This document shows positions 6,881 through 8,554 of a DNA stretch of 38,099 nt, piece by piece. The stretch is from Escherichia coli (GTDB lineage: Bacteria; Pseudomonadota; Gammaproteobacteria; Enterobacterales; Enterobacteriaceae): NCBI RefSeq assembly GCF_003334335.1, contig NZ_QOWQ01000042.1; one strand, given 5' to 3'. Within the stretch, counting starts at the first letter, position 1; each line of letters opens with the position of its first letter. Under the pieces are notes generated by a model, which was not told the DNA's origin, did not search any database, and saw only the letters and a list, made by a program, of their open reading frames with translations. The position numbers were made by a program, and so were the translations under genes.

Positions 6881-7555
6881 TCAGAATTCAAATTGTCTTG
6901 CCCGCAGGCTTTTCAGCATTGGCATGGCCCGCTGGATAACGGAACTTGACATGTCGAGACGTGTTACCTCCCTTAGTAGCGCGTCTCTGTTCTTCGTCAC
7001 CATGTAGATGGTCTCAAACGCAATGTCATACAGCTTGTTCGTGTATGAGGAGTTCAGCTCTTTCATAATGGGATACAGGTGTTTGCTGAGGTCCTGGGCT
7101 TTTTCCATCCAGAGCTGCATGTAGCAAAGGAGGATGATTTCTTCGGCTGTGAATTGTGGCTGAATCTGCGGCTGCTGTTCGGTTGGTGCTGTTTTTCCCT
7201 GGCTGAAATAGCAGTCTTCCAGTTTTTCGAACACTTCCCACGCCTGATCGGTTTCTAGCATTTTTGCGTGGCGGGCTGCGCCTCGTTCTGTCCAGAGGAT
7301 GAGCGAGCGGGTTTTGGGAGAGATTTTCACCTCATTTTGCGACTCGTTTAAAACTAGTCGCAAATTTCTGAGTTCATCACCAACAGCTTTAAAGAAGTGC
7401 TTTCCCTCAATAAACCGAGATTTATTTTCATGGTGATTCTGCTGTATACGGATTGTTTCTGTTCCATAAAGGCGGGCAAGCAACTCAGTTGTGATTACCG
7501 GAATCTGGTTATAGGTAACAGGGGAAAGGTTTTTGACAGAGATTTGAACAGTCAT
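6881..7555 (-). CDS. ORF6N-domain protein (antirepressor-like DNA-binding N-terminus, unknown C-terminus)
   Basis: N-terminus contains NHHENKSRFIEGKHFF and ILWTERGAARHAKMLETDQAWEVFEKL, hallmarks of the ORF6N/KilA-N-type fold. GAGGT RBS upstream of the ATG. Confidence 0.6.
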   Translation of the reverse strand: MTVQISVKNLSPVTYNQIPVITTELLARLYGTETIRIQQNHHENKSRFIEGKHFFKAVGDELRNLRLVLNESQNEVKISPKTRSLILWTERGAARHAKMLETDQAWEVFEKLEDCYFSQGKTAPTEQQPQIQPQFTAEEIILLCYMQLWMEKAQDLSKHLYPIMKELNSSYTNKLYDIAFETIYMVTKNRDALLREVTRLDMSSSVIQRAMPMLKSLRARQFEF

Positions 7556-7716
7556 AACGACCTCGCGTTTCGATAATTTTTACCTCACCACCTTCAGGTG
7601 CTAATCATAGTGGTGGCGAACTGTGCGGGGTTAGCACTACCGGTCGAAACATCCGGCGAGCCTTTCGGCTCCCCCACACAGCCCGCCATAAATCGCGAAT
7701 GTGACTGTGCTTAGCG

Positions 7717-7740
7717 CATAAAAAAACCGCCAGCGCGGTT
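7717..7740 (-). terminator. intrinsic terminator on the early-right strand
   Basis: Minus strand: aaccgcgctggcggtt followed by TTTTTTT, between the cargo island and the ORF6N gene. Confidence 0.45.
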
Positions 7741-7820
7741 ATGCACCGTTTCGATATCCGGGGTGCTAATCCCGACGCCAGATTTTGCTGGCGTGCGAAG
7801 AATATAATCCCGGATATGTG

Positions 7821-7849
7821 TTGTCGTCAACATACCTTGAATGTATATA
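7821..7849 (+). promoter_or_regulatory. candidate sigma70 promoter of the toxin-antitoxin operon
   Basis: TTGTCG, 17 bp, TATATA, ending 12 nt before the toxin ATG (very short leader). Motif-based only. Confidence 0.3.
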
Positions 7850-7860
7850 ACAAATTTGTT

Positions 7861-8202
7861 ATGTTTACTCTCATAAACTACATTATCGAATACTACAGTG
7901 ACGAGGTTGAAGCTGAGATCCTTTCTCTTCCTGAGACCTTACAAGCCCGGTACATTCGGTACACGGAGAAAATGCGTATTTACGGAGCTAATCTTGGTTC
8001 CCCGCATACAGAGGCATTTGGCGACGGTTTGTTTGAAATCCGCCTTAAGGGCTCGGAAGGCATAGGGCGTGTTTTTTACTGCACGCTAAAAGGAAAGCGA
8101 ATCATTATGTTGCATAGCTTTGTAAAGAAAACGCAAAAAACTCCACCTGCCGAGCTTAGAAAAGCTGAAACCAGAATGAAGGAGGTTAAGCATGACTGGT
8201 AA
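7861..8202 (+). CDS. gp49-like RelE/HigB-family toxin (DUF891-type)
   Basis: 113 aa with GDGLFEIRLKGSEGIGRVFYCTLKGKRIIMLHSFVKKTQKTPPAELRKAE, the gp49/HigB-like motif. Overlaps the downstream HTH gene by 11 nt. Confidence 0.7.
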   Translation: MFTLINYIIEYYSDEVEAEILSLPETLQARYIRYTEKMRIYGANLGSPHTEAFGDGLFEIRLKGSEGIGRVFYCTLKGKRIIMLHSFVKKTQKTPPAELRKAETRMKEVKHDW

Positions 8203-8500
8203 ACGTACCCCACCTACCATGACACACGATGAAATGGTAGAAAAAATGTTGTCTAACCCCGCAGTAAAAGCAGAATACGACGCCATCGCCGATGAATTCG
8301 CACTACTTGATGAAATGCTGGCAGCACGAAAAGAAGCTGGCTTAACCCAGGCTGAAGTTGCTGAACGTATGGGAACAAAAGCGACTGCGATAACCAGAAT
8401 GGAAAGCAATCTTGCATCAGGTACAAGCGGCCCATCATTTGCCACACTGAAAAAATTCGCCCGTGCTACAGGGAAAAAACTCCAGATCCGCTTCGTTTAA
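8192..8500 (+). CDS. XRE-family HTH antitoxin (HigA/gp48-like)
   Basis: 102 aa; EAGLTQAEVAERMGTKATAITRMES is an XRE-type HTH. Toxin-first gene order with overlap. Confidence 0.7.
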   Translation: MTGKRTPPTMTHDEMVEKMLSNPAVKAEYDAIADEFALLDEMLAARKEAGLTQAEVAERMGTKATAITRMESNLASGTSGPSFATLKKFARATGKKLQIRFV

Positions 8501-8512
8501 CTCTCCACTACC

Positions 8513-8537
8513 GCGCCGTCATTCTGGCGGCGCTTTA
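8513..8537 (+). terminator. weak terminator-like hairpin after the antitoxin
   Basis: gcgccg-tcattctgg-cggcgc followed by TTTA; the T-run is poor. Confidence 0.25.
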
Positions 8538-8554
8538 CCCCAGAGAAATATCAA

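Follow-up and report, generated by a model that had tools for sequence, protein, structure and literature searches.

A Gp49/XRE toxin-antitoxin pair of probable leaderless design in the nin region of a lambdoid Escherichia coli prophage

The window studied here, a 38,099-nt stretch of Escherichia coli DNA (contig NZ_QOWQ01000042.1 of assembly GCF_003334335.1), is the early-right/nin region of a lambdoid prophage, read on its minus strand. Between 7861 and 8500 it carries a plus-strand toxin-antitoxin pair, a Gp49-type toxin gene followed by an XRE antitoxin gene. We propose, with a probability of about 0.6, that this pair is a type II operon in which the toxin is of leaderless design, that it is held as antisense cargo of the nin region, that an ATA codon impairs the toxin start in the window, and that the pair is independent of the neighboring DUF4145 gene. 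Beyond what is known of the class, this adds a leaderless arrangement of promoter, operator and start codon, which we consider probable, an ATA allele, and the independence of the pair from its RAZR-like neighbor.

A Gp49-type toxin and its XRE antitoxin

The toxin open reading frame (ORF; 7861-8202, plus strand) encodes 113 aa when read from ATG 7861, 109 aa from the family-equivalent start at 7873, and 76 aa from the start that RefSeq uses, ATG 7972. An earlier note on this DNA had called the product a gp49/HigB-like toxin, and profile searches bear this out. Residues 19-107 match Pfam Gp49 (PF05973) over model positions 2-90 of 90 (E 6e-27), the only Pfam match at E ≤ 10, with no HigB-like or ParE profile found at that threshold; phrog_2523 is matched at E 5e-42, and PF05973 is present in all of the 2,834 toxin homologs collected. 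The AlphaFold2 (AF2) model (predicted local distance difference test, pLDDT, 81.7) has a RelE-type beta-alpha-alpha-beta-beta-beta core and a long C-terminal helix, with strands (E) and helices (H) at E8-11, H14-21, H25-41, E57-64, E67-77, E80-88 and H96-111; a long helix 3 is a trait of Gp49-like toxins (PMC9098466). Sequence matches in the PDB are Streptococcus pneumoniae HigB (6AF3) and, reached by the family profile, Mycobacterium tuberculosis HigB1. Foldseek places 6AF3/6AF4, 7NBU, 2KHE and 5JAA at the top of the matches to the model; by protein, the best structural matches are S. pneumoniae HigB (template modeling score, TM, 0.69), ribosome-bound M. tuberculosis HigB1, Thermus thermophilus RelE and Vibrio cholerae HigB2.

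Four residues of the toxin, R61, R70, F87 and K89, are invariant across the subfamily alignment. They align with the active-site residues R68, R73, F90 and K92 of S. pneumoniae HigB, mutation of which lowers both RNase activity and toxicity (PMC7984235). Their counterparts in M. tuberculosis HigB1 are R68, R77 and the catalytic K95 (aligned with K89); HigB1 has been shown to be a ribosome-dependent A-site mRNA endonuclease (PMC9098466). By homology, the window toxin should be such an endonuclease as well.

The antitoxin ORF (8192-8500, plus strand; 102 aa) consists of a non-helix-turn-helix N-terminal extension of ~40 aa and an XRE helix-turn-helix (HTH) domain at residues 44-98. It matches Pfam HTH_3 (PF01381) at E 1e-10 and phrog_1373 at E 3e-36, upholding the earlier call of an XRE partner, and its best PDB match is the HigA chain 6AF3_B of the S. 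pneumoniae complex (E 1.4e-3); the best solved relatives of toxin and antitoxin are two chains of one complex, HigBA 6AF3. As had also been noted before, the toxin gene comes first and the two ORFs overlap by 11 nt (8192-8202). The related loci that we compared comprised 80 from viral contigs, 80 from contigs taken one genome per species, and several annotated E. coli and phage regions. An antitoxin homolog lies directly 3' of the toxin homolog in 167 of these 168 loci, the overlap being mostly 4, 8, 11 or 14 nt, and toxin-first order has been described as universal among studied Gp49 modules (PMC5906591). The antitoxin has its own Shine-Dalgarno (SD) sequence, AGGAGG (8180-8185, plus strand), 6 nt before its ATG and within the codons for the conserved C-terminal MKEVKH of the toxin. 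The toxin subfamily is unusually well conserved (50-78% identity) and widespread, with hosts among Beta-, Gamma- and Deltaproteobacteria, Nitrospirae, a cyanobacterium, anammox planctomycetes and others.

The pair is a member of the known type II Tad-Ata/HigBA-like class, recognized but without experimental characterization; the family call is already reflected in the RefSeq labels 'RelE/ParE family toxin' and 'helix-turn-helix domain-containing protein'. Among solved structures, the S. pneumoniae HigBA system (6AF3/6AF4; PMC7984235) is closest to both partners (the family profile of the toxin reaches it at E 7e-7), and like them it has a Gp49-type toxin with a long C-terminal helix, the R/R/F/K equivalents, and an XRE antitoxin, which in the pneumococcal case binds palindromes in the promoter. 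It differs in being only ~20% identical in sequence, in having four palindromes in a promoter not described as leaderless, and in belonging to another host and context. The Tad-Ata modules (pAMI2 tad-ata, phage N15 gp49-gp48 and SXT, from Dziewit et al. 2007 as cited in PMC5906591; the IncC plasmid tad-ata, PMC8265657) likewise have a Gp49 toxin gene first, then an XRE antitoxin gene, on mobile elements including a prophage. The window toxin is 43% identical to N15 gp49 (residues 19-109), the protein after which the family is named and which the title of Dziewit et al. 2007, in the reference list of PMC5906591, names as part of a Tad-Ata-type stabilizing system. The window toxin differs from these modules in belonging to a distinct, tightly conserved subclade (phrog_2523); moreover the N15 genes abut, whereas those of the window overlap. 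HigB1 of M. tuberculosis (7NBU/7AWK), the toxin of a toxin-antitoxin-chaperone (TAC) system, and HigBA2 and HigBA3 of the same species have the Gp49-like fold and the long helix 3, but HigB1 belongs to a three-part system with a chaperone.

Canonical HigB/HigA (Proteus vulgaris/E. coli type) resembles the window pair in having the toxin first, a RelE-superfamily toxin and an HTH antitoxin, and occupies the same prophage slot in other E. coli, yet it is a separate sequence family. Membership in the P. vulgaris type, and in ParE, was rejected on profile scores for both partners. The toxin is related to TIGR02683 (the upstrm_HI1419 RelE/ParE toxin equivalog) but is not a member (21.8 bits against a cut-off of 62.85); in NCBIfam the antitoxin has no HigA-family model, and its matches to HipB, MqsA and RstR-type HTH models all lie below cut-off. 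PADLOC makes no system-level call, giving for the toxin a local C-terminal match to the last 50 positions of NsnC (E 5e-8) along with weak HTH matches.

Two further features of the cassette may be mentioned here. A GC-rich hairpin with a 9-bp stem (8513-8533) lies between the convergent antitoxin gene and a minus-strand phage gene. The RNA fold of 8496-8550 has -19.1 kcal/mol (z = -4.8 against shuffles), and the hairpin is the probable transcription stop of the cassette; only three U residues follow it, and a plus-strand terminator scan did not report it. Separately, DNA similarity to other E. coli Gp49 cassettes starts within the toxin gene, at ~8068 (7861-8068 as against 8068-8500). Compared with those cassettes the antitoxin is 91% identical and the toxin 68-73%, and the N-terminal two-thirds of the toxin are closer to versions from Salmonella, Arsenophonus and Photorhabdus, a pattern that suggests a recombination breakpoint inside the toxin gene.

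Start codon, predicted promoter and predicted operator of the toxin gene

Toxin homologs begin where the 113-aa ORF has its fifth codon, and their consensus there is M-N-Y-T-I-x-Y-Y. Close E. coli variants carry both ATGs (MFILM, MLIPM), and in locus L005 of our set the upstream ATG is followed by a stop (MF*FM), as is also the case in L023, L024 and L107. Because of these stops, the downstream codon must be the toxin start in such relatives, and the 113-aa start of the earlier note is not that of the family, which falls at 7873-7875. We found a conserved arrangement in front of this codon. In the window a predicted -35 box TTGAAT (7837-7842, plus strand) is followed after 17 nt by a predicted -10 box TATGTT (7860-7865, plus strand), which contains the ATG at 7861-7863 that had been taken for the toxin start, and after a further seven bases by the family start codon and predicted transcription start (7873-7875, plus strand), ATA in the window and ATG in sister copies. 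A TTGAAT or TTGCGC with the 17-nt spacer is kept in E. coli relatives of different contexts. The general form, a -35 TTGnnn, 17-nt spacer, -10 TAnnnT, 6-7 nt and the start codon, recurs in E. coli cassettes of four different prophage contexts and in far more distant loci, and the sequence upstream of the -35 box is unconserved between contexts.

We quantified this geometry in 95 non-redundant upstream regions (<85% identical over 45 nt). The TAnnnT hexamer stands exactly 6 nt before the toxin start codon in 44 and exactly 7 nt before it in 16, that is, at 6-7 nt in 60 of the 95 loci (63%), taken from Beta-, Gamma- and Deltaproteobacteria, Nitrospirae, cyanobacteria and anammox bacteria; other offsets have 0-7 loci each, save for echoes of the palindrome described below at 11 and 18 nt. 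A control run found TAnnnT at 6-7 nt before 59 of 94 toxin starts but before only 25 of 811 (3.1%) other ORF starts in the same loci. The TTG of the -35 box falls at a spacer of 17-18 nt in 33 of the 95 regions, against 0-7 for every other spacer length. SD-like motifs precede the toxin in 7 of 95 loci and the antitoxin in 72 of 95, and an in-frame stop lies within 8 codons upstream of the toxin start in 58 of 94.

Standing 6-7 nt ahead of the start codon, the -10 box sets the first transcribed base at the A of the AUG itself, and this marks a leaderless gene. From this geometry and the missing SD sequence, the toxin subfamily appears to be of leaderless design. Leaderless genes are few yet real in E. 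coli and include prophage genes, lambda cI (transcribed from PRM) and paaR2 of the O157:H7 paaR2-paaA2-parE2 operon (PMC8630535). These prophage transcripts likewise start at AUG with operators in the promoter, and paaR2 even heads a toxin-antitoxin operon; in both cases, however, the leaderless gene is a repressor gene, whereas here it would be the toxin gene, and conservation of the design extends across many phyla instead of being a matter of lambdoid immunity regions. Our literature search found no description of leaderless design in Gp49-type toxins, the titles and abstracts that it returned being on other topics. The signature is not common to all Gp49 modules, since N15 gp49 has a conventional leader, caggaggttatactATG, with a normal AGGAGG; for the same reason, the earlier view that a very short leader is typical of HigBA-like modules does not hold in general.

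The earlier note had proposed a different promoter, TTGTCG (7821-7826), 17 nt and TATATA (7844-7849), with a leader of ~5 nt before ATG 7861, a toxin of 113 aa and a fully functional pair. ATG 7861 is indeed in frame, open and the sole full-length start of the window allele; RefSeq has the 113-aa form in some identical copies, the ORF is intact in many ATA genomes, and TTGTCG is conserved in the closest E. coli variants. We nevertheless think this model unlikely. The spacer from TTGTCG to TATATA or CATATA is 17, 19 or 24 nt in close relatives, which is not a conserved promoter; this hexamer pair went unreported in our scan and no SD sequence accompanies the ATG; the upstream ATG runs into a stop in the four loci named above; the four extra residues precede the first strand of the AF2 model and are unconserved; and even a few leader nucleotides are a strong hindrance to initiation of the leaderless type (PMC8459731). 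The comparative promoter TTGAAT-17-TATGTT would instead put the transcript start at the family start codon, 12 nt past ATG 7861.

A perfect 16-bp palindrome, ATAACAAATTTGTTAT (7847-7862), fills the promoter spacer and overlaps the -10 box; it is the predicted operator of an antitoxin dimer. The core of this site, TAACA-N4-TGTTA (7848-7861), has no second match in the window, not even when one mismatch is tolerated. Of 104 non-redundant loci, 87 have the motif T[AT]NC[AG]-N4-[TC]GN[AT]A, where shuffles would predict 1.07; in 59 of the 87 it ends 10-11 nt before the start codon. The variable third base of the operator changes symmetrically across the half-sites in 82 of the 87 loci: the base pair is A/T in 51, G/C in 21, T/A in nine and C/G in one, with asymmetric half-sites in the other five. 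When loci are grouped by operator class, the antitoxin columns that follow the class most closely are three adjacent ones, K63, A64 and T65, at the start of the predicted recognition helix; at the K63 position, for instance, A-type operators go with K or Q, and all 18 ungapped sequences that have a G-type operator carry T. These covariation scores are inflated by sequence relatedness, but the site that they single out is what direct readout by an antitoxin dimer would predict. The pneumococcal HigA and HigBA complex have been shown to bind promoter palindromes (PMC7984235). A generic inverted-repeat search, with a minimum arm of 10 nt, missed the 8+8 palindrome; a 77% inverted repeat at 8535-8625, within the neighboring minus-strand gene, was judged unrelated.

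Several points weigh against our proposal. The promoter is deduced from geometry; both of its window hexamers match only 4/6 of the consensus, and a consensus promoter scan of 7500-8900 listed neither it nor the promoter of the earlier note. About a third of the family loci lack the exact 6-7 nt geometry, and the L065-L084 subgroup (GCTAAC-ATG) has its ATG inside the -10-like box. In 10 of 95 loci the toxin starts with GTG, which is a poor initiator on leaderless mRNA in E. coli. At least eight complete E. coli genomes and an isolated phage have the ATA allele, described below, in a toxin ORF that is otherwise intact, which could mean that expression persists from ATG 7861 or from another start. 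Finally, toxicity is not to be assumed from a Gp49 domain alone, since HigB2 and HigB3 of M. tuberculosis, which are Gp49-domain proteins, are non-toxic upon expression (PMC9098466).

Some of these points would fit an alternative in which the toxin mRNA has a leader but no SD sequence: transcription would start further upstream or arrive by read-through, the palindrome would lie in the 5' untranslated region, initiation at the canonical codon would be AU-rich and S1-dependent, and TAnnnT would be no more than the operator edge. The palindrome ends in the very TA with which the -10-like box begins, so that the two signals are partly common; the weak hexamers of the window and the subgroup with ATG inside the box also favor such a reading. 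The palindrome explains neither the T at hexamer position 6 nor the fixed distance of 6-7 nt; moreover, the TTG peak is at exactly 17-18 nt, and no conservation continues upstream of the -35 box between contexts. We think this alternative quite unlikely, and retain leaderless design as the preferred reading.

Other signals in and around the promoter were recorded along the way. In L065-L084 and L156 (viral and Burkholderia-type), the palindrome TAGCAAATTTGCTA is followed by ACATG, and the ATG sits within a -10-like TAACAT box, off the 6-7 nt geometry. Directly upstream of the predicted -35 box lies an imperfect palindrome, TGTTGTCGTCAACA (7819-7832), that L002-L004 also keep; a second operator, a divergent promoter and a cassette boundary are all conceivable roles for it. 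It overlaps a strong minus-strand promoter-like TTGACG-18-TATATT (7830 to 7801; 10/12 matches) directed at the Ant antirepressor gene, a hit of the promoter scan that is not conserved in relatives and was set aside, as was the only other hit of that scan, a plus-strand site inside the antitoxin gene. A 153-aa ORF from ATG 7741, called in one ENA record (P0001), was rejected; it has no homology upstream of residue 41 and spans the promoter region.

The ATA allele and a proposed mechanism

Codon 5 of the window ORF (7873-7875) is ATA. The same position has ATG in L006, L009-L017 and L173, E. coli G1/2 being among the ATG copies, and ATA in L001, L007, L008, L086 (Escherichia phage PhiR5_2), L172 and L174. 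Named copies with ATA are DETEC-S792, SCU-104, NCTC9112 and PhiR5_2, besides genomes that are 100% identical over 7821-8540, and the ATA form is present in at least eight of the 12 complete E. coli genomes with the cassette. ATG is the ancestral state, since it is the family consensus.

Leaderless mRNAs strongly prefer AUG, and AUA and other near-cognate codons sharply lower initiation on them; a few added 5' leader nucleotides are strongly inhibitory as well (PMC8459731). ATG 7861 would lie outside the predicted transcript because it is part of the -10 hexamer. With an ATA start, and with the sole full-length in-frame ATG lying before the point where the predicted transcript begins, the window allele probably makes far less toxin or none, while the antitoxin would still be made from its own AGGAGG.

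Gene callers differ at this locus. RefSeq gives 109 aa for ATG copies and either 76 aa (from ATG 7972) or 113 aa for ATA copies, even when these are identical, and the variant in a Shiga toxin (Stx) phage is called at 87 aa. The 76-aa call raises the possibility that the window holds a truncated toxin remnant beside an orphan antitoxin or repressor, which we consider very unlikely. It is the call of the PGAP annotation pipeline in identical copies and in PhiR5_2, GGAG stands 3 nt upstream of ATG 7972, and the canonical start has been lost. Yet that SD spacing of 3 nt is short, M38 is invariant in the family for reasons other than initiation, and the Pfam Gp49 match and the model both take in residues 19-37; the shorter product would be without strand 1 and both N-terminal helices, which carry the antitoxin contacts in S. 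pneumoniae HigB (PMC7984235).

The canonical toxin start is also missing elsewhere in the family: it is ATA in L119 and L167 (metagenome-assembled genomes of a Desulfurivibrio and of a deltaproteobacterium) and GTC, AAC or CAT in three Burkholderia species (L128, L140, L157). In all five the ORF is open over the aligned stretch and the promoter and operator are kept. Start-codon loss may be a recurrent disarming of the toxin module.

In the mechanism that we propose, the toxin would act as a RelE-fold ribosome-dependent mRNA endonuclease, and the antitoxin would neutralize it, probably through the N-terminal extension. An antitoxin dimer would repress the operon by way of the TAACA-N4-TGTTA palindrome in the spacer of TTGAAT-17-TATGTT. 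Across the subfamily, transcription would begin at the A of the toxin start codon, and the toxin would be translated at low efficiency, without an SD sequence, from leaderless mRNA; the strong internal AGGAGG that overlaps the 3' end of the toxin gene would drive translation of the antitoxin and thereby keep it in excess.

A more speculative extension, which we hold to be unlikely, is that the leaderless toxin cistron serves as a sensor of the translation-initiation state. Toxin would be made by SD-independent 70S initiation and antitoxin by SD-dependent 30S initiation, such that any stress or phage attack that lowered canonical but not leaderless initiation would flip the ratio and fire the module without antitoxin proteolysis. 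Since almost any bacterium supports leaderless initiation and a self-contained promoter and operator, the design would also explain the presence of one nearly unchanged cassette, with its operator, in hosts as far apart as E. coli prophages, anammox bacteria and cyanobacteria, and the ATA alleles (the window, L119, L167) would then be 'disarmed' forms.

Prophage cargo and the DUF4145 neighbor

The minus-strand phage genes of the window comprise replication O- and P/DnaC-like genes, DUF1627, Ren-like DUF977, NinB, NinE, DUF1364, RusA and NinH. The toxin-antitoxin pair is plus-strand cargo, antisense to these early genes; the prophage location suggested in the earlier note stands, the pair being a self-contained module on the opposite strand. 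It may serve in abortive infection or in stabilization, the roles that the earlier note considered, though the window allele may be an inefficient producer of toxin. It is flanked by the ORF6N/Ant antirepressor gene (6881-7555, minus strand) and by a small phage gene (8555-8800, minus strand; phrog_8371, E 1e-55), beyond which lies the DUF4145 gene (8799-9473, plus strand), a second cargo gene antisense to the phage operon. The segment 7556-8540 is identical to phage PhiR5_2 (PV340546; recorded host K-12 MG1655), where the two genes are labeled HigB and HigA; a literature search for this phage returned nothing relevant. An intrinsic-terminator-like hairpin with a T-run (7725-7748, minus strand) lies between the cassette and the Ant gene and may terminate phage early-right or antisense transcripts ahead of Ant. 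The Ant protein has weak PADLOC matches to the candidate defense family PDC-S05 (E 3e-7), which probably reflect a common ORF6N/KilA-N-type DNA-binding domain.

In the DUF4145 protein, a Cys4 zinc ribbon at the N terminus (CPHC...CRSC) precedes a DUF4145/HEPN domain (Pfam E 8e-9). PADLOC matches the protein weakly to PD-T7-4 (E 0.0026), from whose model this copy diverges. RAZR, an abortive-infection RNase that acts as a single gene and was described in 2026 (PMC13017515), has the same architecture of zinc ribbon plus DUF4145, and the neighbor may be an uncharacterized relative of RAZR that lambdoid and Stx phages carry. The phrog_8371 and DUF4145 genes overlap at their start codons in a CATG (8798-8801), leaving no intergenic promoter space, and RefSeq annotates this CATG-overlapping gene pair alike in many genomes.

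The earlier note had asked whether the pair and the DUF4145 gene are independent systems or one composite, and had proposed checking their co-occurrence in other genomes. A single composite defense system would be suggested by their lying 300 bp apart on the same strand, and by the presence of a Gp49-type pair in the adjacent slot in 20 of the 37 E. coli genomes (among 5,426 complete ones) that carry the DUF4145 gene. The slot holds other content in the remaining 17 of 37, namely canonical HigB/HigA (L170, L171), ParD with a hypothetical gene and an orphan HigA (L169), or further content. Seen from the side of the pair, a DUF4145 homolog lies within 3 kb in none of the 80 genome loci (non-enterobacterial) and in 14 of the 80 viral loci; DUF4145 accompanies 19 of all 168 toxin-antitoxin loci, all of them E. 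coli/Shigella lambdoid, and the pair occurs without it at other prophage positions (L004, L005). The minus-strand gene 8555-8800 and the hairpin at 8513-8533 separate the two in the window, and RAZR works as a single gene. We conclude that the pair and the DUF4145 gene are independent systems within a common cargo hot spot, and regard a composite system as highly improbable.

The slot itself, between the ORF6N/Ant and phrog_8371 genes (7556-8554), is a toxin-antitoxin swap site in collinear prophages (L002, L003, L088, L169-L171), the cassettes always being on the strand opposite to the phage genes. Its contents are a Gp49 pair, canonical HigB/HigA, ParD with a hypothetical gene and an orphan HigA, a Gp49 pair with an orphan HigA, or DUF805 with two hypothetical genes and a Gp49 pair, the last found also in the Shigella Stx phages 75/02 and POCJ13. 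Forty-six E. coli genomes without the cassette, O157:H7 and O111:H8 strains among them, carry an unannotated 71-nt remnant of the antitoxin 3' end (8432-8502; 2385-2455 in L169) at 94-96% identity. The orphan HigA gene of L169 comes right after this remnant, which has the look of a scar left by cassette replacement.

More broadly, the nin region of lambdoid and Stx phages looks like a small defense/cargo hot spot, with a toxin-antitoxin swap site beside a RAZR-like gene. For annotation, the missing SD sequence leads gene callers to toxins of 76, 87, 109 or 113 aa in near-identical DNA, and the comparative start fixes the length. The ATG and ATA alleles of otherwise identical cassettes, in sequenced E. 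coli and in an isolated phage, form a natural experiment that bears on the effect of the start codon on toxicity, prophage stability and phage defense. If the leaderless reading is true, a whole toxin-antitoxin subfamily found in many phyla would make its toxin from leaderless mRNA, which would be a simple way to hold the toxin below the antitoxin in a toxin-first operon.

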